Source: an uncultured Desulfovibrionaceae bacterium
GTDB lineage: Bacteria > Desulfobacterota > Desulfovibrionia > Desulfovibrionales > Desulfovibrionaceae
DNA: 24,000 nucleotides
Reading direction: 5' to 3'
Assembly (NCBI GenBank): GCA_964593925.1
Contig: CAZQKM010000019.1
Location: 19,081 to 43,080 of the forward strand
The notes below the pieces were generated by a model. That model did not search any database. It had not been told where the DNA came from and worked only from the letters and a program-made list of their open reading frames with translations. Made by a program: the position numbers and the translations under genes. The stretch's first letter is position 1. Every line of letters starts with the position of its first letter. Shown one piece after another: positions 8,000 through 23,859 of the stretch.

Positions 8000-9394
8000 T
8001 TATAGTGCCATCGCACGGTCAAGCCGCCCAAGGGTACGGTCTTTACCAAGCAGCCCCATCACAGCAGCAAGATCAGGACCGCCCATACTACCCAATAAGG
8101 CCACACGTAAAGGCGGCCCCACCATTTTAAACTTAAGGCCATTGTCTGCCACATACTGTTGCAGCATATAATGCGCTGCCTGTCCATCAAACGGATCACA
8201 ACCCGCAAAAGCACTACGCAAGGCATGCAGGTGGGCCCGCCCTTCCTCGCTCAACGCTTTAGCAACAGCGCCGGTATCAAAAACAAGGTCTGCATCAGCA
8301 CACAGTACAGGCTGCATGGCCGTTGCCAACTCCAAAAGGTCTCGAGCACGCTCCTTGTACATCCCCACAGCCGCTGCCAGGCAGACATCATCAATAACTC
8401 CATATCCGGCATCAGCAAGAAAAGGACGTACCAACAGCGCCAGTTCGGTATCAGGAGTTGCCTTGATATATTGTGCATTGAGCCAAAGTAGCTTGTCAGG
8501 GTCAAACCCTGCCGCGGAACGTGAAAGACTGTCTGTGCTAAAAAGCGCCACCAGTTCCTGTAATGTAAATTTTTCCTGATCCTTATGGGACCAGCCAAGA
8601 CGTACAAGATAATTCACCAACGCATGGGGCAGTATGCCGGCCTGCTTGTATTCGATGACGGCTTTGGCTCCATGGCGTTTGGACAACTTTTGCCTGTCCG
8701 AACCAAGAATCATAGGGACATGCCCAAACAAAGGCACAGACAACCTCAAAGCCTCGTAAAGCAGAATCTGCTTGGGGGTATTGTTTACATGATCATCACC
8801 CCGTAACACATGCGTCACCCCCATGGTAGCATCATCCACCACCACGGCCAAGTTGTACGTGGCAGAGCCGTCTGCTCGACGCAGAATCATGTCATCCAGC
8901 TCGACATTTTCAAAAGCAATGGGACCTTTGACCAAGTCGGTGAATATTGTTTTTCCACTTTGCGGCGCTTTTAGGCGTACCACACAGCCCGGCCCGCCTG
9001 TCAGGCCAAGCTTCCGACAATGCCCGTCATATTTAGGCTTTGCCCCGCGCTCCCGAGCTGCCTCGCGCATGGCTTCCACTTCATCAGGGCTACACTGGCA
9101 CCAATAGGCTTTGCCTTCTTCCAGCAAGCGGTCAATATATGCATTGTATACCTCTGCACGGTGGCTCTGGTATACTGGCTCACCGTCCCAATCCAAGCCA
9201 AGCCATGCCATGGATGCTAAAATGGCATCTGTATATTCCTGCTTTGAACGCTGGCCATCAGTATCCTCAATCCGTAATACAAACTGACCTTGGCAATGAC
9301 GGGCCAGCAACCAACTGAACACGGCGGTACGCGCGCCGCCAAGATGCAAGTGCCCCGTGGGGCTGGGTGCAAACCTCGTAACAACCTTACTCAT
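8000..9394 (-). CDS. gltX: Glutamyl-tRNA synthetase
   Basis: 464 aa. The N-terminus is MSKVVTRFAPSPTGHLHLGGARTAVFSWLLAR (class I HIGH-type motif). It also has the KLSKRHG (KMSKS) motif. Length and overall sequence are typical of bacterial GltX. Confidence 0.95.
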   Translation of the reverse strand: MSKVVTRFAPSPTGHLHLGGARTAVFSWLLARHCQGQFVLRIEDTDGQRSKQEYTDAILASMAWLGLDWDGEPVYQSHRAEVYNAYIDRLLEEGKAYWCQCSPDEVEAMREAARERGAKPKYDGHCRKLGLTGGPGCVVRLKAPQSGKTIFTDLVKGPIAFENVELDDMILRRADGSATYNLAVVVDDATMGVTHVLRGDDHVNNTPKQILLYEALRLSVPLFGHVPMILGSDRQKLSKRHGAKAVIEYKQAGILPHALVNYLVRLGWSHKDQEKFTLQELVALFSTDSLSRSAAGFDPDKLLWLNAQYIKATPDTELALLVRPFLADAGYGVIDDVCLAAAVGMYKERARDLLELATAMQPVLCADADLVFDTGAVAKALSEEGRAHLHALRSAFAGCDPFDGQAAHYMLQQYVADNGLKFKMVGPPLRVALLGSMGGPDLAAVMGLLGKDRTLGRLDRAMAL

Positions 9395-12108: not shown

Positions 12109-13167
12109 CTACGTTTCCAAAACATCTCCCACAGGGAGCTGATGAACACAGCCGCCTTCGTCCTTCAGCAGTAGCCTTCCACTATCATCCACATCCAGCA
12201 CCTGCCCTGTAATCACAGCATCCCCCCTGCCTAAACGGATATGATGTCCTACGATATGAGAGCATGACTTCCAACGGCTCACCACCGCACTTTCACCCTG
12301 AGTGCAAAATAACGTATACCATTCCTCCAGTGCTTCCAGGACATGCCGAGCCACGGGTGCGCGAGGAATCCTCCAGCCCTCTGGAGCCTGCTCGGCCACT
12401 CCTGCCATATGCTCACCTGTCACAGCTTCGCACAGCGAAATAGCCGTATCAGGCACTTCCAACCCCAACTTGCTACTGTCTGCAGACACATTAATACCCA
12501 CACCAAGCACAGCGTAGTCCAGCATGTCCGCAACCACCCCTGCCTCCACCAGGACCCCGCAAACCTTGCGTTGATGTATCAGCACGTCATTGGGCCACTT
12601 GGCAACAGCAGGCAAGCCTGTCATCTTACGTACAGCTTCAGTAACAGCAGCCGCTGTCAGCAAGGTTAATACGGGTACATTTTGCAGTGTACATCCGGGC
12701 CGCAGCAGCACAGACATGTATACGCCGCCGCCAGCTGGCGAATGCCATGTCCTGCCCTGCCGACCACGGCCGGCTGTCTGTTGCTCAGCAAGCACAACCG
12801 TGCCTTCCGCAGCGCCCTGCTCCGCCAACACCCGTGCCTCCATATTGGTGGAGGGTGTGCTGGCAAAATATACCACACGCCCCTGTCCAAAACATGCGGT
12901 ACGCAAACCATACCGAACTGCTTCATCCCGCAACGTATCCGCATCTCCCCCCAAGCGATAGCCATGCCGCGTTACGGCCTCCACAGGGTAGCCGACCTCT
13001 TTGAGCAATCGCATGTGCTTGGACACAGCCGCACGCGAGATACCAAGCTCCCGCCCCAATGTAGAACCTGAAACCCACTGCCCGGGATGTGCGTGCAAGA
13101 TTCGCAATATACTCAGACGCACGTGCTCGCCTTTGGAATCCTTTATCACAGTCAATTGTAAACCCAT
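12109..13167 (-). CDS. birA: Bifunctional biotin-[acetyl-CoA-carboxylase] ligase / biotin operon repressor
   Basis: The N-terminal winged HTH is STLGRELGISRAAVSKHMRLLKEVGYPVEAVTRHGYRL. The ligase motif is QTAGRGRQGRTWHSPAGGG (GRGRxGRxW). It is divergent from bioB. The start is uncertain: ATG 13167 has no SD and lies inside the operator, and GTG 13146 (VIKDSKGEH...) is an alternative. Confidence 0.9.
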   Translation of the reverse strand: MGLQLTVIKDSKGEHVRLSILRILHAHPGQWVSGSTLGRELGISRAAVSKHMRLLKEVGYPVEAVTRHGYRLGGDADTLRDEAVRYGLRTACFGQGRVVYFASTPSTNMEARVLAEQGAAEGTVVLAEQQTAGRGRQGRTWHSPAGGGVYMSVLLRPGCTLQNVPVLTLLTAAAVTEAVRKMTGLPAVAKWPNDVLIHQRKVCGVLVEAGVVADMLDYAVLGVGINVSADSSKLGLEVPDTAISLCEAVTGEHMAGVAEQAPEGWRIPRAPVARHVLEALEEWYTLFCTQGESAVVSRWKSCSHIVGHHIRLGRGDAVITGQVLDVDDSGRLLLKDEGGCVHQLPVGDVLET

Positions 13168-13188
13168 ATTAAAATAAAATGTTGACAA
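13156..13188. promoter_or_regulatory. BirA operator (bioO-like inverted repeat) in the birA-bioB divergent region
   Basis: TTGTAAACC (13156-13164), 15-nt A/T-rich spacer, then TGTTGACAA (13180-13188). The left half is identical to the E. coli-type BirA half-site TTGTAAACC. The right half matches GGTTTACAA at 7 of 9 positions. It lies 79 nt upstream of the bioB ATG and overlaps the annotated birA ATG. Confidence 0.7.
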
Positions 13189-13267
13189 TATAAAATACCA
13201 CACGCTACACCCCTTCCAGCCACTGACCCCATACCCTGTTGGCGTGGGTGACCATCAAGGATTGTAT

Positions 13268-14239
13268 ATGCTCATCGACTACACCGCACTATGCCAACGT
13301 ATTGTACACACCCCAGGCCTGGCTGCCACACCAGACGAAGCTGAGCGCCTTCTTGCCTTACCCCCCAGAGACACTCTGCCGTTATTGGCATGTGCCCAAC
13401 GCATCCGGCAAGCGCACAGCCCCACTGTATTTACATGCGCCATCATTAATGCGCGCTCAGGGCGCTGTGCCGAAAACTGCGCATTTTGTGCTCAATCAGC
13501 GCATCATGGCACCAATGCACCCATATATGATATGCTCTCCGTCACTGAGCTTATTCGGCGTGCCCAATGTTTTGCCGAAGCCGGTGTCAACAGGCTTGGA
13601 ATTGTCATTAGCGGCACGCGCCCCGGCATACGCGAAATTGACAGTGTATGTGAAGCCATACAACGCATTACAAAAAAAACATCGCTATCCATGTGTGCCT
13701 CGCTTGGCCTGATCACTGCCGAGCACGCGCAAATGCTCCACCAAGCGGGCCTTGAGCGTTACCACCACAATCTGGAAACCGCACGCAGCTTTTTTAACAA
13801 CATATGTACCACCCATGACTACGACGAAGCTGTGCATACCGTCAAACTCGCCCGACAGGCTGGCCTGCGCATCTGCTGTGGGGGTATTCTCGGTCTTGGT
13901 GAATCTTATGCGCACCTTACCGAACTGGCCGCAGAGCTTGAGCAGCTTACCGTGGACTCCATTCCCATAAATTTCCTTACACCCATTGCCGGAACCCCGC
14001 TGGCAAAACAGCCTCCAATGCCGCCTTTTGAGGCGTTACGCGCCATTGCTGCATTCCGATTCATGCATCCTGAACAGGATATCCTTGTGGCTGGCGGACG
14101 CGAGAATACACTTGGCCAGTACCGTTCATGGACCTTCATAAGCGGCGCCAACGGCCTTATGGTGGGTGACTACCTGACCACATCAGGCCAGGGGCTTACC
14201 CACGATTACGCCATGTTACGCGCCATGGGAGTTATCTAG
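13268..14239 (+). CDS. bioB: Biotin synthase (radical SAM)
   Basis: ORF 13244..14239(+). Preferred start is ATG 13268, with AAGGA 6 nt upstream. It has the radical-SAM motif CAENCAFC (CxxxCxxC), YHHNLET, and the overall BioB length and pattern. Confidence 0.95.
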   Translation: MLIDYTALCQRIVHTPGLAATPDEAERLLALPPRDTLPLLACAQRIRQAHSPTVFTCAIINARSGRCAENCAFCAQSAHHGTNAPIYDMLSVTELIRRAQCFAEAGVNRLGIVISGTRPGIREIDSVCEAIQRITKKTSLSMCASLGLITAEHAQMLHQAGLERYHHNLETARSFFNNICTTHDYDEAVHTVKLARQAGLRICCGGILGLGESYAHLTELAAELEQLTVDSIPINFLTPIAGTPLAKQPPMPPFEALRAIAAFRFMHPEQDILVAGGRENTLGQYRSWTFISGANGLMVGDYLTTSGQGLTHDYAMLRAMGVI

Positions 14240-15609
14240 TGTCGCATCCCCACGCCGAAACCCTCCGTTTACGCACCCTTGATGCCGCACATGTGTGGCA
14301 CCCTTTCACACAAATGGCCACCTGGCATAAAGACAATCCGCTTATCATCAACAGCGGCCAGGGAAGCTGGCTTACGGATACCGACGGCAAACGCTACCTA
14401 GACGGCGTATCCTCACTGTGGACCAATGTACATGGCCACAGGCATCCAGATATTGATGGCGCAGTACGCGATCAACTCGACAAAATTGCCCATTCCACCC
14501 TACTGGGCCTGTCCAATACACCTGCCGTAGAGTTGGCTGCCATGCTGGCAACTGTCAGTCCCCCAGGGCTTACACGTGTTTTTTACTCCGACAGTGGATC
14601 CAGTGCTGTGGAAGTAGCGCTAAAAATCGCGTATCAATATCAACGTCAACGCGGCCTCTCCGGTAAGGAGCGTACCGCCTTCTTGTGCCTGCACAACGCC
14701 TACCACGGCGATACCGTAGGAGCCGTTTCCCTAGGCGGTATTGACCTATTTCATGCGGTCTATGGTCCGCTGCTTTTTGCGACTGTTCGCGCCCAGAGCC
14801 CATACTGTTATCGTTGCCCTTTTGATAAAGAAGCCCAGAGCTGTGCCAAAGAATGCTTTACCCATCTGGAGGCAATGGCTGAACAGCATGCCACGGAACT
14901 GGCCGCATTAGTCATTGAGCCCCTGGTCCAAGGGGCTGCCGGCCAAGTTACGCATCCCCCAGGGTACCTCGCCCACGCTCGCAAGCTTTGCGACCATTAT
15001 GGAATGCTGCTCATTGCTGATGAGGTGGCAGTGGGGTTTGGCAAAACAGGCACACTCTTTGCCTGCGAACAAGAAAATGTAACTCCTGATCTGTTATGCT
15101 TGGCCAAAGGTATCTCTGGCGGCTACCTGCCTTTGGCCGCAACCCTTGCCACTGATGCGGTATATGAAGCATTTTTAGGTACCCATTCGGAGTGCCGCAC
15201 TTTTTTCCATGGTCATACCTACACCGGCAACCCGCTGGCTTGCGCCGCGGGTATCGCCAGCCTCAAGCTCTTTGACAGTGAAAATACCCTTGCCCGGCTG
15301 GGGGGTATCATCACTCACTATGCCGCCCTGCTGCATCCCCTCAAAGAACACCCTCATGTAGGGCAAATCCGCCGTCAAGGAATCATGACCGGTATTGAGC
15401 TGGTGGCAAAAAAAGACTCTAAAACGCCATATCCCTTTGCTGAACGCATGGGGCACAAAGTTGTCATGGCCGCCCGCAAACGGGGAGTTATTATCCGCCC
15501 TCTGGGAGATGTTCTAGTACTCATGCCACCTCTTAGCATCACTCCAAAAGAGTGTGATCTGTTGGTTAATGCCGTTGCCGAAGCCATTGACGAGGTCACA
15601 GGGGGCTAG
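14239..15609 (+). CDS. bioA: Adenosylmethionine-8-amino-7-oxononanoate aminotransferase
   Basis: GTG start overlaps the bioB TAG by 1 nt (TAGTG). Motifs are WHPFTQM, ADEVAVGFGKTGTLFACE and LAKGISGGYLPL (PLP lysine region). 456 aa. Confidence 0.95.
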   Translation: MSHPHAETLRLRTLDAAHVWHPFTQMATWHKDNPLIINSGQGSWLTDTDGKRYLDGVSSLWTNVHGHRHPDIDGAVRDQLDKIAHSTLLGLSNTPAVELAAMLATVSPPGLTRVFYSDSGSSAVEVALKIAYQYQRQRGLSGKERTAFLCLHNAYHGDTVGAVSLGGIDLFHAVYGPLLFATVRAQSPYCYRCPFDKEAQSCAKECFTHLEAMAEQHATELAALVIEPLVQGAAGQVTHPPGYLAHARKLCDHYGMLLIADEVAVGFGKTGTLFACEQENVTPDLLCLAKGISGGYLPLAATLATDAVYEAFLGTHSECRTFFHGHTYTGNPLACAAGIASLKLFDSENTLARLGGIITHYAALLHPLKEHPHVGQIRRQGIMTGIELVAKKDSKTPYPFAERMGHKVVMAARKRGVIIRPLGDVLVLMPPLSITPKECDLLVNAVAEAIDEVTGG

Positions 15610-15613
15610 CGCC

Positions 15614-15934
15614 ATGCATATGCCGAATACCGGATCACATGCCATGCCACAAAAACTATATGGCAGCTTTCATTTTTCCCCCCATGACCCCGTGTATGTA
15701 GAGCATTTTCCTGGTGCCCCCTGTGTACCGGGCTCCTTCCTTGTAGCCGCTTTTACCCAAGTGGCCACACAGCACGTACATGCAGGTCCCTGGCATGCAC
15801 ATAATTTTCGATTTCGAAGCTTCGTACCACCAGGAACACATCCTTTTTGCGTGGAATACTCGACAACAGAACTACGATGTACCCTGCATGTAGGCGAACT
15901 CAAGGCTATTACAGGAAAACTCTTATGTCGCTGA
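15614..15934 (+). CDS. Truncated FabZ-like hotdog-fold protein (3-hydroxyacyl-ACP dehydratase homologue, catalytic His present, Glu position = Ala)
   Basis: ORF 15554..15934(+). Preferred start is ATG 15614, 4 nt after the bioA stop. FSPHDPVYVEHFPGAPCVPGSFLVAAFTQVAT aligns without gaps to the FabZ motif N-E-P-F-F-x-G-HFPGxPxxPGVLxxEAxAQ. FRFRSFVPPG matches the FabZ ARFKRPVVPG region. It is only 106 aa and lacks the N-terminal PHRFPFLLVD strand. Confidence 0.7.
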   Translation: MHMPNTGSHAMPQKLYGSFHFSPHDPVYVEHFPGAPCVPGSFLVAAFTQVATQHVHAGPWHAHNFRFRSFVPPGTHPFCVEYSTTELRCTLHVGELKAITGKLLCR

Positions 15935-16686
15935 GCTTTCGCCATGGGGCCGTATTGATTCTAGGTGGTAGCAGCCATCTGGGGCGTACTGTGGCATATG
16001 CGCTTATGGCCGCGGGGGTCCCTGTTTGCCTCAGCGTCCGGAATAGTCAGCGCCAGGCAGACTTGGCCCATGCTTTTGCAGCCTCCTACCCCGCAACTGT
16101 CACAGCGGATCTTAGCTCTCCAGATGCAGCAGATAGCCTCATCCTACAAGTAGAACATGCCCTGCAACAACAGTATGGTACGGATTTAACCGTAGGCTAC
16201 CTAGTGGACTTTCTGCACACCGACTATGAAACGCTGCTCGCCGCAGCTGCTCCTGAACGCATCAGTACCTATGTGGAGAGTAACATCACATGGCGTGGCC
16301 GTATGCTCCGTGGTGTCAGTCGTCACATGCTACATCACGGCACAGGGCGCATGCTGTTTGTTTCTTCTACTGCGGCCGTGCTGCCCAATGCAGGGCAAGG
16401 ACTATATAGTGCATCAAAGCTGGCGGGCGAAGCGCTGTATCGCAATATGGGTATAGAGCTGGCAGCCAAGGGTATAACTACCTGTAGCCTACGCCTGGGA
16501 TACGTCAATGCAGGACGTGGAGCACAATACCTGCAACAGACCGATGTTACGACACGTATCCCCATGCAGCGTGCCTTGAGTTCCATAGAAGTAGCACAGG
16601 CCTGCACATTTTTACTCTGTGACCACTCCATCGGTATCAATGCCACCACAATAACCATGGACGGCGGCCTTACCGCCTGTAAATAA
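15925..16686 (+). CDS. Short-chain dehydrogenase/reductase, FabG-like (3-oxoacyl-ACP reductase homologue)
   Basis: ORF 15847..16686(+). Preferred start is ATG 15925 (MSLSFRHGAVLILGGSSHLGRTVA...), with AGGAAA 6 nt upstream and a 10-nt overlap with the previous gene. It has a Rossmann glycine motif GGSSHLG and the catalytic elements FVSSTAA ... YSASKLAGE (S, YxxxK). 253 aa. Confidence 0.85.
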   Translation: MSLSFRHGAVLILGGSSHLGRTVAYALMAAGVPVCLSVRNSQRQADLAHAFAASYPATVTADLSSPDAADSLILQVEHALQQQYGTDLTVGYLVDFLHTDYETLLAAAAPERISTYVESNITWRGRMLRGVSRHMLHHGTGRMLFVSSTAAVLPNAGQGLYSASKLAGEALYRNMGIELAAKGITTCSLRLGYVNAGRGAQYLQQTDVTTRIPMQRALSSIEVAQACTFLLCDHSIGINATTITMDGGLTACK

Positions 16687-16700
16687 CAGGAGAACTCGTC

Positions 16701-17114
16701 ATGTCGAGCCCACACCACCCCCAGGATATCACAGAAAAAATATATAGCATCATTGTAGACATACTGGATATTTCACCAAATGTACTGACCCCACAGACCT
16801 ATGTCATGCGTGAGCTTGATACAGAATCCATTGATCTTCTGGAGTATGGTGTAGCGTTAAACGCCACATTTGGTATCCCCGTACATGACGACACCGTGTT
16901 TCTTCGCTCACTGCGAACACATCTGCTTGAAGCTCAGCATACCGAAATTTCTGCAGAAGCCTATCTAGCCACATGGTACCCCCACCTGAGTGCCACACGC
17001 ATTGTAGAGATCATACATACAGTGGACCAAGGCCCCGTACTACGCATACAGGATATTACAGACTATGTCCGCCATACCCTGAACAAACAGGAACAAAGCG
17101 GACATGTCAGTTGA
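16701..17114 (+). CDS. Atypical acyl carrier protein (137 aa)
   Basis: AGGAGA lies 7 nt upstream of ATG 16701. ITEKIYSIIVDILDISPNVLTPQTYVMRELDTESIDLLEYGVALNATFGIPVHDD aligns to ACP helix I through helix II, with Ser43 (tcc, 16827-16829) at the phosphopantetheine position (D-S-L-D becomes E-S-I-D). It has about 55-60 residues more than canonical ACPs. Confidence 0.75.
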   Translation: MSSPHHPQDITEKIYSIIVDILDISPNVLTPQTYVMRELDTESIDLLEYGVALNATFGIPVHDDTVFLRSLRTHLLEAQHTEISAEAYLATWYPHLSATRIVEIIHTVDQGPVLRIQDITDYVRHTLNKQEQSGHVS

Positions 17115-18468
17115 ATTGCATCGTGTGGTTATTACCGGGGCAGGGGCCATTACGCCACAGGGTAACACCCCCCAAGCTGTAGTCGATGCCTTCAGAAGCG
17201 GATACACGGCCTTTGAGCCTGCACCGCTCTTACCCGGTGTAGCACAAGCCCCTGCCTGGTTTGATGTAAACAGTGAGCTTTGCTCTTGGCGACACCGTCG
17301 CTATCTGAATCGAGGTGCGGCCATGTGTGTAGCCGCCGCACTGCAAGCCGCACGGCACGCAAAAGCTACAGAATTTCCTCCGCGCTGTGGCCTGTTCATC
17401 GGTTGCGGCCCCAACCTTGAACCTTACAGTCATGCCGCTCCTGAAGCAGACAGTACTTGCAGCAATTCCGGGCCTTCCGCCCTGTGGATCCTGCGATATC
17501 TACCCAATACAGCCGCATCGGCCATAAGCCGACTTTTGGGTATCCATGGCGAAAACCTGACATTGGGAACAGCCTGTACCGCCTCACTACAGGCACTAGG
17601 CGAAGCCTTTCGGCGTATCCGTCGAGGCGAGATGCCCATGGCTCTGGCAGGCGGTGGAGACTCACGCCTGTCGCGCCAAGGCTTGCTGGCCTATGCCCAG
17701 GCTGGAGCACTGGCTCCTTGTGCCCCTGCCCCAGCAAAAGAAACGGAACAGGGGCAGCACATGAGCACACCTTTTTTTACCACCGTCCATATACAGCAGC
17801 TACCCGCTGCACCACTGGCCTGCCGCCCTTTTGATCTTTCGCGTCAGGGTTTTGTAGCCGGTGAGGGAGCAGGCATGTATGTACTGGAGTCTCTGGACCA
17901 CGCTCTTACACGTGGAGCTCGCCCACTGGCAGAAATACTCGGATACGGAGCTTCCATGGACGGGCATGCCATGACCGCACCGGATCCTTATGGAACCCAC
18001 GCCGAAACCGCGGTGCGTACCGCACTAGAAGAGGCGGACATCCACCCTGAAGACATTGCTGCCATATGCGCACACGGCACCGGAACCTCGCGCAACGATG
18101 AAGCTGAAGCCAGCATGCTTCAAAGGCTATTTGCCGACACAACATACAGACCTCCGGTTCTGGCTCTTAAATCATGGACCGGACACTGTGCTTCTGCCTG
18201 CGGTGCGGTGGAGCTGGCCTTGCTGCTAGCCTGTTCCCGTAACGGCTTCTTACCCCCGATACGCAACCTGCGCAACCCGCTTACCCCTGCGCTGGCACTG
18301 ATGCGCCATGTCCAACCATTTATTCCCGCAGATCCTCCTGTCACGGACCACATACCAGCACCGCCACACACCCCCTCAACCATTCTGTTAGAAAATTTCG
18401 GATTTGGAGGCCAAAATGCCGCACTTGTTGTTCGTCCTTTCAGCCCTTGCAAATCAGACGGAGTCTAG
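17104..18468 (+). CDS. Beta-ketoacyl-ACP synthase, FabF/FabB (KAS I/II, Cys-His-His) type
   Basis: ATG 17104 overlaps the ACP gene end by 11 nt. Motifs are HRVVITGAGAITPQG, active-site GTAC(158)TAS (TGT 17575-17577), RPFD, CAH(324)GTGT, K(356)SWTGH(361)CASACG and ENFGFGGQNAALVV. 454 aa. Confidence 0.9.
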   Translation: MSVELHRVVITGAGAITPQGNTPQAVVDAFRSGYTAFEPAPLLPGVAQAPAWFDVNSELCSWRHRRYLNRGAAMCVAAALQAARHAKATEFPPRCGLFIGCGPNLEPYSHAAPEADSTCSNSGPSALWILRYLPNTAASAISRLLGIHGENLTLGTACTASLQALGEAFRRIRRGEMPMALAGGGDSRLSRQGLLAYAQAGALAPCAPAPAKETEQGQHMSTPFFTTVHIQQLPAAPLACRPFDLSRQGFVAGEGAGMYVLESLDHALTRGARPLAEILGYGASMDGHAMTAPDPYGTHAETAVRTALEEADIHPEDIAAICAHGTGTSRNDEAEASMLQRLFADTTYRPPVLALKSWTGHCASACGAVELALLLACSRNGFLPPIRNLRNPLTPALALMRHVQPFIPADPPVTDHIPAPPHTPSTILLENFGFGGQNAALVVRPFSPCKSDGV

Positions 18469-18472
18469 TTAG

Positions 18473-18982
18473 ATGCATCTCGCTCCTTTAAGTGTACATA
18501 GCGGACTTCCCGCCAACCCTAAGGGCAGCATACATCCACGCTTTGTACTGCCCCGCAGCCTAGATGCCCCTACGGCAAATACTCTTTCCGGCTTTCTGTC
18601 CTCTTGGCATGGCAATACTCCACTCTGGTATGTAACTGAGGCTCTTGCTCAACTTGCAACACTCCATACCCGCTGGCTTTGCGATTTTGCCTGCCATGGC
18701 TTTTTACTGTCTATCCGCAGCCTGCCGACAACGCCCTCCATACATCCTGCGGTTTCCGCAAAAAATGAAAAAGAAAAAGCATACCACATACATGCCGAAC
18801 TGCTTGCCCAAAGTGGCGCTGGGCATACCAAAACCTTTGAGTACAAAGTGTCACTTGAACTCCCCACACACCCCGTACAGGGCGTCCTGCGTACCGCTAC
18901 CCGCCCTTATGACCAGACATTTTCGGCCACCCTACTACAGACTCGCTACCAAAGGCTGTTTACATGGCTCCAACAGCATTAA
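18473..18982 (+). CDS. Hypothetical protein, probable degenerate FabZ-like hotdog (Glu motif present, canonical His position = Leu)
   Basis: ATG 18473 lies 4 nt after the KAS stop, and the 3' end overlaps bioF by 19 nt. SIHPRFVLPRSLD resembles the FabZ N-terminal LPHRFPFLLVDRV. NTPLWYVTEALAQLATL aligns to PxxPGVLxxEAMAQ, with Glu56 (gag, 18638-18640) at the catalytic Glu position. Similarity is weak and judged by eye only. Confidence 0.5.
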   Translation: MHLAPLSVHSGLPANPKGSIHPRFVLPRSLDAPTANTLSGFLSSWHGNTPLWYVTEALAQLATLHTRWLCDFACHGFLLSIRSLPTTPSIHPAVSAKNEKEKAYHIHAELLAQSGAGHTKTFEYKVSLELPTHPVQGVLRTATRPYDQTFSATLLQTRYQRLFTWLQQH

Positions 18983-20124
18983 ACGCACACCTTGAAACAC
19001 TACGTCATGCGAGCTGCCATCGTACCCGACCAGAGATCTCGGCACGGCAGGGAAAATGGATCGAACTGGACGGCACCCGTTTATTGAATTTTGCCTCCAA
19101 TGATTACTTGGGGCTGGCTGCATGCCCACAATGGCACGCCACTGTAGCCCAGTGCTTTGCCACCCACGCACCCTGCGCCTCTGCTTCTCCTCTTGCTGGC
19201 GGGCACTCCTCTGTGGTTCAAAAGGCGGAACAGACTCTTGCCACCTACTTCGGCTATGATGAAGCTCTGCTCATGCCCAGCGGATATCAGGCAAACATTG
19301 CGGTATTGTGGGTAATGAGCATGGCCCATGGGCGGATACTCTATGACAAACGCATCCATGCCAGCACGGCCATGGCCATACGCGGTAGCAGCGCCATCCC
19401 CCATGGTTTTATCCATAATGACATGAGCGCACTAGAGCGCAGGCTACGTCATATCGTATACAAACATACACACTGCACTGGTGATGCCGTTTTTGTGGAA
19501 TCATTATATAGTATGGATGGTGACAGCCCGAACTTTAGCGCCCTTGGCAAGCTCAAGGAGCGTTATGGCTATACTCTCGTTGTTGATGAAGCCCACGCCC
19601 TAGGGGTGCTGGGGCCGGGTGGGCGGGGGCTGGGCGCTGGCACTGCGGATATCGCCGTGGGCACTCTTGGTAAGGCTCTTGGCCTGTTCGGCGCATTCAT
19701 CCTGCTACCAAAAGGGTGGAGCGAATTTTTCCAAAACCTGGCTTCACCGTTTATACACTCCACAGCGTTGCCCGACGCACATGCAGCCTGCGTGACCTAC
19801 CTGCCAAAACAACTGGCAAGCATGGATACACAACGGGCGCACCTAGCTGCCATGAGTAGCCTGCTACATGAAAAACTGCACCATGCGGGCCTGCCTACAC
19901 AAGGTCGTGAGCACATTGTCGTGGTCCCCATAGGCGCTGAACAACGGGCTACTGCTGTGGCAGAGGCATTACGACACCAAAGCATCTTTGCCCTAGCAGC
20001 ACGCCCCCCCACAACCCCCAGGGGCAAATCCGTTGTACGCCTTGGTGTGACTGCGCTGCATACCCCCCATGACATTGAGATCTGCGCACAAGCGCTTATT
20101 CGCAGTATCCGGAGTATACCATGA
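18964..20124 (+). CDS. bioF: 8-amino-7-oxononanoate synthase
   Basis: Motifs are LLNFASNDYLGLA, VVDEAHALGVLGPGGRG and GTLGKALG (PLP lysine). 386 aa. The N-terminus is collinear with E. coli BioF. Confidence 0.9.
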   Translation: MAPTALNAHLETLRHASCHRTRPEISARQGKWIELDGTRLLNFASNDYLGLAACPQWHATVAQCFATHAPCASASPLAGGHSSVVQKAEQTLATYFGYDEALLMPSGYQANIAVLWVMSMAHGRILYDKRIHASTAMAIRGSSAIPHGFIHNDMSALERRLRHIVYKHTHCTGDAVFVESLYSMDGDSPNFSALGKLKERYGYTLVVDEAHALGVLGPGGRGLGAGTADIAVGTLGKALGLFGAFILLPKGWSEFFQNLASPFIHSTALPDAHAACVTYLPKQLASMDTQRAHLAAMSSLLHEKLHHAGLPTQGREHIVVVPIGAEQRATAVAEALRHQSIFALAARPPTTPRGKSVVRLGVTALHTPHDIEICAQALIRSIRSIP

Positions 20125-20831
20125 AAAAACATACCTTGTTGCCCGAAGACCTTTTTGTCACCGGAACCGACACTGACGTGGGCAAAACCACAGTCAGCCT
20201 GTTACTGTTACGCGCATGGCGCGAATACGGTCATGAAGCCCGCTATTTCAAACCGGTACAGACGGGTTGCGCACATCCGGATGATGCCATGGGCGATGCC
20301 CACTTTATCCACAGCCACAATCCGCAATGCACACAGACTTCTCACACGTCCACCGGACTGTGCTTCACAGCCCCCAAAGCCCCACTTTATGCTGCGCGCG
20401 ATCAAAAGCACACCATAGAACTGAAAACGCTTCTGCACAGACTGGCATGCCTGCGCCAACCCCATAGCCCCTTAGTTGTAGAAGGCTCTGGAGGGCTCAT
20501 GGTACCACTCAATGAACAAAATACCATGGCAGATTTCATCAAAGCCACAGGGATGCGCACCATACTGATAGCCCGCACCGGCCTTGGCACCATCAACCAC
20601 ACGCTCCTTTCGCTGGAAGCCCTCAAGGTTCGCAATGTGAACGTGGCAGGCATCCTGTTTGTAGAAACAGAGCGCATCCCTCCAGCCCAATCCATGGTTC
20701 AAGAAAACATGGAAGCCATCGCCACGTTTTCAGGTACACGTGTCAGTGGAGTCATTCCGTACATTGCCGATTTTCAAACTCCGCCAGCCCAGGCTCAGTA
20801 CACTGTACAACAGATACTGGAGGCGCTGTAA
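20121..20831 (+). CDS. bioD: Dethiobiotin synthetase
   Basis: ATGA overlap with the bioF stop, and GGAG upstream. P-loop LFVTGTDTDVGKTTVS. 236 aa. Confidence 0.9.
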   Translation: MKKHTLLPEDLFVTGTDTDVGKTTVSLLLLRAWREYGHEARYFKPVQTGCAHPDDAMGDAHFIHSHNPQCTQTSHTSTGLCFTAPKAPLYAARDQKHTIELKTLLHRLACLRQPHSPLVVEGSGGLMVPLNEQNTMADFIKATGMRTILIARTGLGTINHTLLSLEALKVRNVNVAGILFVETERIPPAQSMVQENMEAIATFSGTRVSGVIPYIADFQTPPAQAQYTVQQILEAL

Positions 20832-20846
20832 CACCGACTCTGTACG

Positions 20847-22109
20847 TCAGCTCAGTTCGGGAAAACAGGCAAGTACGTCTTCAATGCGGTCACGCCGGCG
20901 AATAAGCCTGTGCGAGCCTTGCATGTCCACAAGTACCTCTGCGGGGCGCAGCCGCTGGGTATACCCCGAACTCATGGAAAACCCGTATGCACCAGCATCA
21001 AGCATGGCCAAGACATCACCTTCGCGCATTTCAGGCAAAGCACATTCTTTAACCATGATATCACCCGACTCACAAATATTACCCACCACGGTCTGAGGCA
21101 TGGTCTGCTCCACGGGAGCGCCGCCATGACGGTGGATCTCCACATCATGATACGCATCATACAGCATCGGACGCTGCAAGGTGTTAAACCCAAGATCAGT
21201 CCCTACAAAGCGGCGTGTGCCATTATCTTTCACGGCATGGACTGTGCCCAACAAGACACCACACTCCGCAGCCACATACCTACCGGGCTCCACCATAAAA
21301 CGACCGCCATACCCTGTACGCTTAGCCCACTGGCTAATACTCTCATGCAGTTGGGCACCCATATCTCCCATGTCAAGACGGGGTTGGCCCTCGTATTTTC
21401 TGTACGGAATGCCAAACCCACCCCCAAAATCGATAAGCTCCACAGAGGGCCACTGCTCTGCCTCTCGTAACAAGAAAGACACGGCCTCCATGTAGCTAGA
21501 CGGATCCATAAACAATGAGCCAATGTGCTGATTCAAGCCCACAAGCGTCAGATCATGGCGCGCCAAGATAGCGCGCACGGCATCGCCATCATCCGCCCCA
21601 ATGCCAAATTTGGTATCCTCACCCGCAGTGATAACCTTTGCATGATGACCTGCGCCAATACCAGGGTTGATACGAATCATGGCCCTACCACCAGGATTCA
21701 CACGCCCTAAAAGATCCAGCTGAGACAAAGAGTCCACGCTGATAAGTACACCGTGCTCCACGGCATTACGTATCTCCTCTGCGGAAACATTATTGCACAC
21801 ATATGTGATTTCATCAGTGGCAAACCCTGCGGCAATGTGCACGGCAAGCTCACCAGGTGACATGGCATCTACAGCCAAACCTTCAGAACGGATAATGCGC
21901 AGCAATGACAGGTTGGCATTAGATTTTGCTGAGTAACTTACACAAAATCCAGGATGTGAGGAAAGCCCCTTTAACTCGCGGCAACGCTCACGCAATATTC
22001 TTTCACTATAGACATACAAAGGGCTACCATATATTTCTACCAGTTCCATGGGCGTTGAAGAGGCAAAAAATTTCTGTGCATCTGTTACTACTGAACGAAC
22101 ATTTTTCAT
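20847..22109 (-). CDS. lysA: Diaminopimelate decarboxylase
   Basis: ORF 20847..22151(-). Preferred start is ATG 22109 (MKNVRSVV...), preceded by GGGGAAAAG. Motifs are YGSPLYVYSE, YSAKSNANLSLL (PLP lysine), GGGFGIPY and NICESGD. It is a fold-type III PLP decarboxylase of LysA length. A related decarboxylase of the same family cannot be fully excluded. Confidence 0.8.
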   Translation of the reverse strand: MKNVRSVVTDAQKFFASSTPMELVEIYGSPLYVYSERILRERCRELKGLSSHPGFCVSYSAKSNANLSLLRIIRSEGLAVDAMSPGELAVHIAAGFATDEITYVCNNVSAEEIRNAVEHGVLISVDSLSQLDLLGRVNPGGRAMIRINPGIGAGHHAKVITAGEDTKFGIGADDGDAVRAILARHDLTLVGLNQHIGSLFMDPSSYMEAVSFLLREAEQWPSVELIDFGGGFGIPYRKYEGQPRLDMGDMGAQLHESISQWAKRTGYGGRFMVEPGRYVAAECGVLLGTVHAVKDNGTRRFVGTDLGFNTLQRPMLYDAYHDVEIHRHGGAPVEQTMPQTVVGNICESGDIMVKECALPEMREGDVLAMLDAGAYGFSMSSGYTQRLRPAEVLVDMQGSHRLIRRRDRIEDVLACFPELS

Positions 22110-22644
22110 CTTTTCCCCATTAGAAGCGCATATCTTTTTACAAAAAAACAAAATCTTGCAAAATATTACGCAACTCCATCAATCATAAAATTTTCTCAGA
22201 AATACACAATACAAAAAAATAATTTTACAAATATATCAGGCAATAGTGCATGCAATATTCATAAAATGACAACCACAAAAAACATGAAAACAACGTGATA
22301 CAAGAATCTATGTGCAAAAAAATCTTGAAATACCTACAATAATACATCTACATAAAAAGACGCATACCAGCATGCATGAGACAGGCAACATATAGCAGCA
22401 GTCCATGCTATATATTTAATAATATTTTTGAAAAACATACACCTACGTACTACTATCCCTACGAATTTGCCCTGTCAATGCATCTTTAGCCCCTCGACAT
22501 CCAGCCTCTCCTTTCACTCCAGACAGGCCCACCGAATGCCCTGCCTTTACCTTCCTCCATGTTTTATCTAACATTTGTATCACAGGCCATAACTGCCTTT
22601 TGACGTCTCCTTCTCTGTTTCCCTCTACAGCTGCCGGAGAAAAC

Positions 22645-23859
22645 ATGACATCCCCCTCTCTTTCAGACACCATTGCAAAGTTGGCTCGCTCAACCGTTGC
22701 CGACTTCACAAAATTCCGCCACGACCTACACTGCATCCCCGAACCTAGCCAAGGCGAAGAAAAAACAGCAAGATACATTGCGGAGCGCCTGTGTGAAATG
22801 GGCATACCGTATGCCACGGATATTGCCGGACACGGCGTCTGCGCCCTCATTGACTCGGGTATCCCAGGCCCTACAGTCATGCTACGTGCTGACATGGATG
22901 CTTTACCCATTACAGAGCAAAGCGGGATACCCTGCTCTTCACAACATGATGGATTCATGCACGCGTGTGGCCACGACTGCCATATGGCCATGATTTTGGG
23001 CACAGCGCATATTTTGCGTAAACTTGTCCGTGAACCACAACGATATCGCCTACGGGGAAGTGTCAAATTACTCTTTCAGCCTGCCGAAGAGTATCCCGGC
23101 GGTGCAAAACCCATGATTGACGCAGGGGTCATGGAGCAGCCACATGTGGACTACTGCCTTGGGGCCCATATCTGGCCCGACCTTCCCCAAGGAACCGTGG
23201 CAATATCCCCCGGGCCTGTCATGGCGGCCGTGGACCGTTTTGATATTACCATCCACGGAAAAGGCGGCCATGCAGCAAAGCCCCACCAGTGCGTGGATGC
23301 GCTGGAGGTTGGAACACAGGTTGTCGGTGCCATGCAGCGCATTATCAGCCGCAAGGTTGACCCCCTGCAACCTGCCCTGCTCACCGTGGGCGAATTTCAC
23401 GCAGGTAGCGCATTCAACATCATCCCCGGAGAAGCCCATATCAGCGGAACCCTGCGTACCCTTGATCCGGGCACCCGCCATGGATGGGAACCGTTACTAA
23501 GGCAGGTAACAAACGGTATATGCACCTCCATGGGTGCGAGAAGTACACTTCTTTTCCGTCCCGGATACCCCCCCGTGGTAAATGACGGATATGTTTCCAC
23601 TCTAGTGGCTCAAACCGCTCGAAACGTGCTAGGAAAAGAGTCAGTTCTCCCGCAGGAACAAAGCATGGCCGGCGAAGATATGGCCTATTTTCTGCACCGT
23701 GCTCCTGGGTGTTTTTTCTTTTTGGGTAGCGGGTTTAAAAGCTGCGCCCCCCTCCATAATCCGCACTTCTTTGTCCATGATGTTGTCATGCTTCCTGGCG
23801 TGGAAATCTTTTGTAAAGCCGTTGTGGCCCTACTTTGCAAAGACGTCTGTGCCACCTGA
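22645..23859 (+). CDS. M20D-family amidohydrolase (N-acyl-L-amino acid amidohydrolase / hippurate hydrolase-like)
   Basis: ORF 22600..23859(+). Preferred start is ATG 22645, after GGAGAAAAC. Motifs are FRHDLHCIPEPSQGEEKTARYI, MHACGHDCHMAMILG, LLFQPAEE and GGHAAKPH. Confidence 0.85.
   Translation: MTSPSLSDTIAKLARSTVADFTKFRHDLHCIPEPSQGEEKTARYIAERLCEMGIPYATDIAGHGVCALIDSGIPGPTVMLRADMDALPITEQSGIPCSSQHDGFMHACGHDCHMAMILGTAHILRKLVREPQRYRLRGSVKLLFQPAEEYPGGAKPMIDAGVMEQPHVDYCLGAHIWPDLPQGTVAISPGPVMAAVDRFDITIHGKGGHAAKPHQCVDALEVGTQVVGAMQRIISRKVDPLQPALLTVGEFHAGSAFNIIPGEAHISGTLRTLDPGTRHGWEPLLRQVTNGICTSMGARSTLLFRPGYPPVVNDGYVSTLVAQTARNVLGKESVLPQEQSMAGEDMAYFLHRAPGCFFFLGSGFKSCAPLHNPHFFVHDVVMLPGVEIFCKAVVALLCKDVCAT

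Follow-up and report, generated by a model that had tools for sequence, protein, structure and literature searches.

A histidine-less, FabZ-derived hotdog protein of a Desulfovibrio-type biotin operon and its proposed pairing with a complementary hotdog protein

Introduction

The window analysed here, 24,000 nucleotides (nt) of DNA from an uncultured Desulfovibrionaceae bacterium, carries a Desulfovibrio-type extended biotin operon on its + strand, and this work concerns the two small hotdog proteins that the operon encodes, HD1 and HD2, and above all HD2 (all window coordinates count from its first letter). A 2004 study (PMC545781) predicted that the cassette found in Desulfovibrio provides a new way to make the pimelate moiety, and transposon fitness data have since shown that D. 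vulgaris Hildenborough requires its cassette to grow when biotin is withheld (Trotter et al., 2023; PMC10102598). BioW, BioC and BioH are reported to be absent from this pathway (PMC545781, PMC10102598), and the route that it takes to pimeloyl-acyl carrier protein (ACP) is genetically validated and biochemically uncharacterised (PMC10102598).

The D. vulgaris cluster has two FabZ-like genes, DVU2560 and DORF42491, and each is required in the absence of biotin (PMC10102598); the second FabZ-like open reading frame (ORF) and its requirement for biotin-free growth are therefore already published. That study states only that the two products ‘have FabZ-like domains’, mentioning no complementary residues and proposing no heterodimer, and it suggests that the enzymes of the pathway have less hydrophobic pockets to accommodate free-carboxylate intermediates (PMC10102598). 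Our literature search found no paper in which complementary residues or a heterodimer are put forward for these biotin-cluster hotdogs.

Results

HD2 is a conserved gene of the biotin operon

The genes of the operon lie in the order bioB, bioA, HD1, 3-oxoacyl-ACP reductase (KR), ACP, beta-ketoacyl-ACP synthase (KS), HD2, bioF and bioD, with birA divergent (Table 1). This order is repeated in related loci, and the window has the gene content, gene order and BirA site of a Desulfovibrio-type operon. The initial annotation described HD2 correctly as an ORF of 169 amino acids (aa) that overlaps bioF by 19 nt. Its ATG begins 4 nt past the KS stop codon (which ends at 18468), with a Shine-Dalgarno sequence, GGAG, 9 nt before it; HD1 is equally spaced after bioA.

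Table 1. Positions of the operon genes, of the regulatory site and of the two HD2 codons discussed in the text.
Feature	Position	Strand	Basis and remarks
birA, divergent	12109-13203	-	ORF translation
BirA-operator-like inverted repeat TTGTAAACC-N15-TGTTGACAA	13156-13188	not assigned	read from sequence
bioB	13244-14239	+	ORF; name from translation and synteny
bioA	14239-15609	+	ORF; name from translation and synteny
HD1, 106-aa truncated ApeI-like/FabZ-like hotdog	15614-15934	+	Pfam FabA, E 9e-6
KR (short-chain dehydrogenase/reductase, SDR)	15925-16686, start codon uncertain	+	adh_short_C2, E 5e-23; FabG-type NCBIfam matches below cut-offs
ACP-like protein, 137 aa	16701-17114	+	PP-binding domain at residues 12-67; ACP NCBIfam matches
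FabF-like KS	17104-18468	+	ketoacyl-synt N- and C-terminal domains
HD2, 169-aa His-less, Glu-bearing, FabZ-derived hotdog	18473-18982	+	ORF, ATG start, Shine-Dalgarno site
Glu56 codon of HD2, equivalent of the FabZ catalytic Glu (H. pylori FabZ Glu72)	18638-18640	+	GAG; aligned to the Glu of IMEALAQ
Arg67 codon of HD2	18671-18673	+	R in 66/66 and 41/41; Glu+11, the position of the FabZ ‘backdoor’ Phe83
bioF	18964-20124	+	TIGR00858, E 1.4e-82
bioD	20121-20831	+	ORF; name from synteny

With KS as the anchor, 80 related loci were collected from Desulfovibrionales, Syntrophales, Desulfobacterales, Desulfarculales and Syntrophobacterales. Of these, 71 extend far enough downstream to be scored, and in 70 a hidden Markov model of the family placed an HD2 homologue in the interval from KS to bioF; HD1 and HD2 were both present in 45 of the 50 loci that cover both positions, as the initial annotation had expected of two partners. 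The five loci without the pair comprise four split clusters and one further locus, L019. In the sequence databases, a word-indexed search with the single protein returned one match only, 99% identical, an exhaustive phmmer search gave 50 cluster representatives, and a profile search of 5.8 billion sequences gave 41 proteins, of which the named ones are all called ‘hypothetical protein’ and only one, a true FabZ, carries a precomputed Pfam domain. Conservation was scored on 66 locus-derived and 41 database homologues (107 sequences). HD2 is a real, conserved gene; that it is a spurious ORF or a pseudogene is ruled out by its conservation, its synteny and its confidently predicted fold.

The exact HD2 protein is recorded only on two contigs of ~1.2 kb (GCA_019826165.1 and SRR15291766). 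The KS of the closest species-level genome, an Oleidesulfovibrio metagenome-assembled genome, is only 58% identical, and the source organism is poorly represented in collections. Homologues of HD2 from Desulfovibrionaceae (P0002, at L003:8597-9352, P0031, P0037 and P0027) tolerate long low-complexity insertions in two loops, beta3-beta4 (19-105 residues) and beta5-beta6 (24-98 residues), which elsewhere have 15 and 8 residues, and reach lengths of up to 476 aa; HD2 of the window has smaller insertions at residues 84-101 and 115-118.

HD2 has a hotdog fold and descends from FabZ

HD2 of the window matched nothing in Pfam or NCBIfam. At the level of the family, three of the 66 locus-derived members matched the FabA model (PF07977; best E 0.15), none matched the 4HBT thioesterase models (PF03061/PF13279) and none matched the ApeP model (PF22817) at E <= 1. 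An AlphaFold2 model built from a 41-sequence alignment was nevertheless confident (predicted local distance difference test, pLDDT, 83.5; predicted template modelling score, pTM, 0.80) and combines one strand with a long central helix (residues 51-69), around which four long antiparallel strands wrap, and with a C-terminal helix (residues 152-168). Every one of the top 50 PDB matches listed by Foldseek was a hotdog protein: they comprise Arthrobacter-type 4-hydroxybenzoyl-CoA thioesterases, FabZ, FabA and PaaI-like proteins. On this model the hotdog fold that had been surmised by eye can be regarded as settled, but the structure does not by itself tell which class of enzyme HD2 is.

The best of the structural matches were in fact the thioesterases (3r3a, 3r32 and related chains, E 3.9e-5), slightly ahead of FabZ chains (E 1.3e-4, TM-score 0.55-0.66). 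They would suit a model in which the two hotdogs work separately, HD2 as a stand-alone, homo-oligomeric Glu56 enzyme, for example a thioesterase or acyl-transfer enzyme that ends elongation at C7, and HD1 as a dehydratase or a decarboxylase-like enzyme with a reaction of its own. That FabZ-like chemistry can change is illustrated by AmcE, a decarboxylase acting on a dicarboxylate-ACP (PMC10698177). The sequence of HD2, however, leads to FabZ and not to the thioesterases. In a comparison of the HD2 profile with the PDB, FabZ chains were the only matches, sub-threshold (E 0.2-0.9) but coherent and with the Glu motif aligned, and the same profile retrieved a bona fide FabZ (P0088) at E 1.4e-5 from the 5.8 billion sequences. 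The hhalign alignment of the 66-member HD2 profile with this FabZ scored 97.8% (E 9.7e-13), and its 113 columns span the fold from first to last strand; it takes a profile-to-sequence comparison of this kind to see the homology. In addition, free pimelate released by a thioesterase would need BioW, which is reported absent (PMC545781, PMC10102598), and separate enzymes would leave HD1, in most species, with a catalytic His and without the FabZ acid. We regard the separation of the two activities as unlikely.

In the hhalign alignment the first strand reads FvLlD.I in the HD2 profile and FLLIDKI in FabZ, so that FVLPRSL of HD2 is paired with FLLIDKI and VTEALAQ with IMEALAQ; the FabZ-like N-terminal segment and the acidic motif had both been recognised in the initial annotation. 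A further resemblance noted there, of HPRF to HRFPF, proved coincidental, as the ‘IHPR’ before F24 is an insertion found in only 2 of the 66 family members. Deletions of 11 and 3 residues in HD2 fall exactly at the FabZ segment ...NEAFFQGHFPNDPIM... and remove the GHFP region. Because HD2 matches FabZ along its length and is shortened precisely where the catalytic His resides, it is a FabZ descendant from which the His loop has been excised while the Glu was kept on the central helix. HD1 and HD2 are not recent duplicates of each other, since an hhalign comparison of the two families was insignificant (3.7%).

HD1 is a truncated member of the same wider group. Its profile matched FabZ chains of the PDB at E 2.5e-7, and all of the 120 relatives listed carry a precomputed ApeI dehydratase domain (PF22818.3), including one protein (P0159) that is identical to HD1; a local scan with PF22818.2 gave no match for HD1 of the window or for P0089. 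The AlphaFold2 model of HD1 (pLDDT 89.9) retrieved FabZ chains with Foldseek, and the best target-normalised TM-score belonged to 6qsr_A, which is ApeI (TM 0.66, root mean square deviation 2.8 Å, E 3.5e-5), from an entry entitled ‘The Dehydratase Heterocomplex ApeI:P from Xenorhabdus doucetiae’. Compared directly by hhalign, HD1 and E. coli ApeI match weakly (17%). Both the HD1-family proteins and E. coli ApeI have weak matches to PKS_DH_N, the N-terminal half of the dehydratase (DH) domain of polyketide synthases (PKS), and neither HD1 nor HD2 matched a MaoC model in Pfam.

The catalytic residues of HD1 and HD2 are complementary

It had been proposed from the window alone that HD1 possesses the catalytic His and lacks the Glu, while HD2 possesses the Glu and lacks the His, and for both proteins the families bear this out. 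In HD2, E56 is invariant in 66/66 locus-derived and 41/41 database homologues (107/107), within an intact FabZ motif, P-x5-E-A-x-A-Q-x-G-A, and there is no conserved His anywhere in columns 36-55. The column opposite the FabZ His is L42 in the window and Gly or Ala in the family if the alignment is left ungapped, or column 43 if it is gapped, and in neither case is it His; the His46 of the window falls in a column of Asn, Gly, Lys or Asp. In HD1 it is H31 that is invariant (62/62 and 63/63, or 125/125), and position 45, the equivalent of the Glu, is Ala in the window and His (30 proteins), Gln (10), Glu (8) or another residue (14) across the family (n=62). The other invariant residues of HD1 are G17, F21, F32, P33, P39, G40, F67, F70, P73, C89 and G101.

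In HD1 a Glu at position 45 (window 15746-15748) occurs only in loci of gut Desulfovibrio, Bilophila and Desulfoluna and in a few others. The proteins that bear it keep a FabZ-like IEA motif and yet co-occur with HD2.

Judged by residue content, a homodimer of HD2 would have no His and most homodimers of HD1 would have no acid. The conservation of HD2 extends well beyond E56, to the invariant A59, R67, H75, F77 and L78 and to Q60, A63, H65, F72, G102, Y146, F150, L155, Y159 and L166, each conserved in at least 90% of the family. HD2 might consequently be pictured as a non-catalytic partner, a stabiliser, an ACP-docking or a chain-length-determining subunit, in which Glu56 is structural while HD1 performs all of the chemistry: H65, R67 and H75, together with the conserved C-terminal helix that FabZ does not have, could serve binding, and hotdog pairs of the HadAB/HadBC and ChsH types include an inert partner. 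Retention of the exact FabZ motif P-x5-E-A-x-A-Q with an invariant Glu56 argues against such a purely structural role, which we judge to be quite improbable. Moreover, in the FabZ architecture a subunit that has only the His is without an acid unless its partner supplies one (PMC5143422).

Rates of HD1 and HD2 do not covary

Correlated evolution of the two proteins, one of the checks named for the heterodimer in the initial annotation, was not observed. In a rate-covariation (mirror-tree) test, the distance matrices of six cassette proteins from 37 loci were correlated pair by pair while controlling for the other four, in four variants. The partial r for HD1 and HD2 was between -0.02 and -0.10, placing them at rank 13 to 15 of the 15 protein pairs. 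With saturated distances and 37 loci the test is crude, and this outcome is an absence of support rather than a refutation; our confidence in the heterodimer is lowered because the prediction failed.

The strongest residual covariation was seen for KS-bioF, HD2-bioF, ACP-bioF, HD1-KS and HD1-KR, where gene adjacency may confound. Covariation of the ACP with BioF would fit BioF taking pimeloyl-ACP directly from a dedicated ACP.

The lack of covariation between HD1 and HD2 would suit hotdogs that work separately, and would also be expected if HD1, HD2 or both were to pair with the housekeeping FabZ, from whose family the two proteins derive, and not with each other. This alternative is unparsimonious. 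HD1 and HD2 co-occur in a single BirA-regulated operon across several orders, the precedent of ApeI:ApeP joins two cluster-encoded subunits, and we consider pairing with the housekeeping enzyme very unlikely.

Predicted tunnel residues of HD2

Substrate tunnels of FabZ have been described in H. pylori FabZ, where, besides Glu72, Gly78/79 lie at the tunnel fork, Phe83 is the ‘backdoor’ and Ile98 and Tyr100 line the path, Tyr100 as the gate (PMC5143422). Transferred to HD2 by motif alignment, and thus dependent on that alignment and on the numbering of one paper, Glu+6 and Glu+7 become G62 and A63, Glu+11 becomes the invariant Arg67, and the invariant F77 takes the place of Tyr100 and the invariant H75 that of Ile98. 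On the side of the His donor, Pro112' corresponds to the invariant F70 of HD1 and Arg110' to R/K68. The residues predicted to line the sole live tunnel would therefore be invariant in both proteins. E56, Q60, A63 and R67 share one helix face because they are spaced i, i+4, i+7 and i+11, residues 51-69 being a single helix in the model. Two hydrophobic tunnel residues of FabZ would thus be replaced by Arg and His in HD2, which fits the suggestion of less hydrophobic pockets in PMC10102598; Arg67 is a candidate contact for an omega-carboxylate.

Other features of the locus

The BirA-box-like repeat is situated 56-88 nt upstream of bioB and agrees with the Desulfovibrio sites listed in Table 1 of PMC545781. 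Since it also falls within codons 1-16 of the birA ORF as called mechanically (GTG at 13203), the called birA start is probably too far upstream. The bioB and bioA ORFs are kept beside the cassette in related loci, as judged by tblastn.

The ACP gene of the window runs 11 nt into the KS gene, whereas most loci from outside the Desulfovibrionaceae have between them a gene for a nitroreductase-family protein of ~210-220 aa (for example L012:6320-6988 and L046:6281-6913; PF00881, E 6e-29 and 3e-23), a candidate enoyl reductase. In the organism of the window the enoyl reductase must be encoded elsewhere, as it is in D. vulgaris (DVU1220). The ~65 C-terminal residues of the cassette ACP have no family match, yet much of this region is covered by tblastn to related loci. 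At residues ~195-238 the KS has an insertion of ~40 residues (APCAPAPAKETEQGQHMSTPFF...) that is not present in FabF and lies between two stretches matching the fabF model.

The remaining genes inspected are ordinary housekeeping context: an M20 peptidase at 22600-23859 (+) and a class I Glu/Gln tRNA synthetase at 8000-9394 (-), both identified with Pfam, and a 434-aa ORF at 20847-22151 (-) which, judged from its translation, resembles a diaminopimelate-decarboxylase-like pyridoxal phosphate enzyme. GC skew is negative in all 1-kb bins of the window, whatever the strand of the genes.

Discussion

A proposed one-site dehydratase formed by HD1 and HD2

Each FabZ tunnel is built across the dimer and draws its His from one monomer and its Glu from the partner (His58' and Glu72 in H. 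pylori FabZ; PMC5143422). Because sites of this type take the two residues from different subunits, a heterodimer of HD1 and HD2 would have exactly one complete site, formed by His31 of HD1 and Glu56 of HD2, while the opposite site would lack both residues and be dead. We propose that HD2 pairs with HD1 in this manner to form an asymmetric 3-hydroxyacyl-ACP dehydratase, which would dehydrate 3-hydroxyglutaryl-ACP and 3-hydroxypimeloyl-ACP on the cassette's own ACP. Both dehydrations would belong to a methyl-ester-free route from malonyl-ACP to pimeloyl-ACP, which BioF would then consume.

The initial annotation had arrived at the same one-site heterodimer, and it is now partly supported. The fold of HD2, its homology to FabZ, the complementarity of the catalytic residues, the synteny and the co-occurrence are observed, and with the precedent of ApeI:ApeP and the requirement of D. 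vulgaris for both of its FabZ-like genes they speak for it, whereas the expected covariation did not materialise. Further observations weigh on the same side as the covariation. No natural fusion of HD1 and HD2 was found among ~250 family proteins: the long proteins of the HD2 family (P0037, P0031, P0045 and others) owe their length to low-complexity insertions and extensions and have no HD1 domain, and the HD1-family matches listed reach at most 205 aa. The two genes are adjacent in none of the loci. On its 10,060-nt contig, the intact-looking cluster of L019 is devoid of HD1, both in the interval from bioA to KR and over the rest of the sequence; bioB, bioA, KR, ACP, a nitroreductase gene, KS, HD2, bioF and bioD are present on this contig. 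The eight of 62 HD1 proteins with Glu at position 45 could in principle act as homodimers. Finally, the sequence of HD2 shows no detectable likeness to ApeP (16% by hhalign with the E. coli protein), hotdog thioesterases are among its top structural matches with E-values as good as those of FabZ, and the example of AmcE cautions that a FabZ-like hotdog can switch chemistry. Taking all of this together, we infer physical pairing of HD1 and HD2, and think it fairly probable that they constitute the dehydratase of the Desulfovibrio-type pimeloyl-ACP route.

A more specific version of this model concerns the free carboxylate of the substrates. That a single asymmetric tunnel might accommodate a dicarboxylate chain was suggested in the initial annotation and is still speculation, to which the alignment adds candidate residues. 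Here the deletion of the His loop in HD2 would abolish the second tunnel, and Arg67, placed like the ‘backdoor’ Phe83 of FabZ at the tunnel fork, would join with His75 and perhaps His65 to cap the tunnel and to ion-pair with the omega-carboxylate that is free in the C5 and C7 intermediates. A single-tunnel dehydratase built in this way for free dicarboxylates would explain both the avoidance of the BioC/BioH methyl-ester disguise and the limitation of chain length to pimelate; we put it forward tentatively, as a possibility that is more doubtful than the pairing itself.

The proposed mechanism is directly testable and bears on an uncharacterised vitamin pathway. If the heterodimer is obligate, reconstitution of the pathway would fail unless both small proteins were co-expressed, and one of the two commonly goes without annotation or bears the label ‘hypothetical’. 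His31 of HD1 and Glu56, Arg67 and His75 of HD2 offer mutable handles on the way in which a machine resembling fatty acid synthase (FAS) treats a free distal carboxylate. The HD2 family has no model in Pfam or NCBIfam, and the alignment from this analysis defines one.

Comparison with known systems

A close counterpart is the D. vulgaris cluster, in which bioB, bioA, a FabZ-like gene, KR, ACP, KS, a second FabZ-like ORF, bioF and bioD are laid out with birA divergent. HD2, likened by this cassette layout rather than by sequence, is almost certainly the orthologue of DORF42491.

To homodimeric/hexameric FabZ (PF07977, for example that of H. pylori) HD2 is linked by the hotdog fold, by the P-x5-E-A-L-A-Q-x-G-A motif and by the ‘AFLL’ segment of beta3. 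It differs in having no catalytic His region, in being invisible to Pfam and in the invariant Arg that replaces Phe83, while HD1 differs from FabZ in having no N-terminal strand and, in most species, no Glu.

Two analogies were drawn in the initial annotation, to double-hotdog DH domains and to mycobacterial HadAB, and of these the first is apt. The DH domains of PKS and of type I FAS (PF21089, PKS_DH_N) contain a single site in each pseudo-dimer, the N-terminal hotdog contributing the His and the C-terminal one the acid; here, in contrast, there would be two separate polypeptides, encoded ~2.5 kb apart, and the acid would be a FabZ-type Glu in an EAxAQ motif. The comparison with HadAB is imprecise. 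Its catalytic Asp and His both reside in HadB, and HadA is inert. A HadAB-type (MaoC) mechanism is ruled out for HD1 and HD2, which have no MaoC match and divide catalytic residues of the FabZ type between them. What the proposed HD1:HD2 pair would share with HadAB and HadBC is a two-hotdog heterodimer with one active site (PMC4491049).

A solved precedent is ApeI:ApeP (PDB 6QSR; Pfam PF22818 and PF22817), a dehydratase heterodimer that is described as having only one active site (PMC8041823). In the aryl-polyene cluster of E. coli CFT073, which we translated, ApeI (117 aa, ...NGHFAVQPLLPGV...) bears the His in GHFAVQPLLPG, and ApeP (154 aa) has a FabZ-like first strand, LPHDAPMLLLEDV, and ...LPGWFALELMAQ..., with the Glu of ALELMAQ and no His. 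Both systems thus encode, by non-adjacent genes of one cluster, two FabZ-derived hotdogs of unequal size, of which the small one (~100-117 aa) keeps the HF..P..PG His motif and the larger one (~150 aa) retains an N-terminal strand and, in E-x-x-A-Q, the Glu, but not the His. HD2 corresponds to the larger subunit: it is a full-length hotdog, has the Glu and no His, and shares its operon with a small ApeI-like protein. The two systems differ in the distance from the first strand to the Glu (30 residues in HD2, 43 in ApeP and 46 in FabZ), in the H65/R67/H75 signature of HD2 and in their setting, which is vitamin synthesis on a dicarboxylate chain here and a polyene pigment there. We have not filed HD1 and HD2 in the ApeI and ApeP families because no HD2 member matches PF22817, a model that E. 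coli ApeP itself matches at 2e-41, because the hhalign comparisons are weak for both subunits and because the deletion in HD2 is far larger; specific orthology is not supported. In their split of residues HD1 and HD2 have the same architecture as ApeI:ApeP, and we class them as a variant of that kind; an HD1:HD2 heterodimer would extend the single-site design from pigment polyketide synthesis to primary vitamin metabolism.

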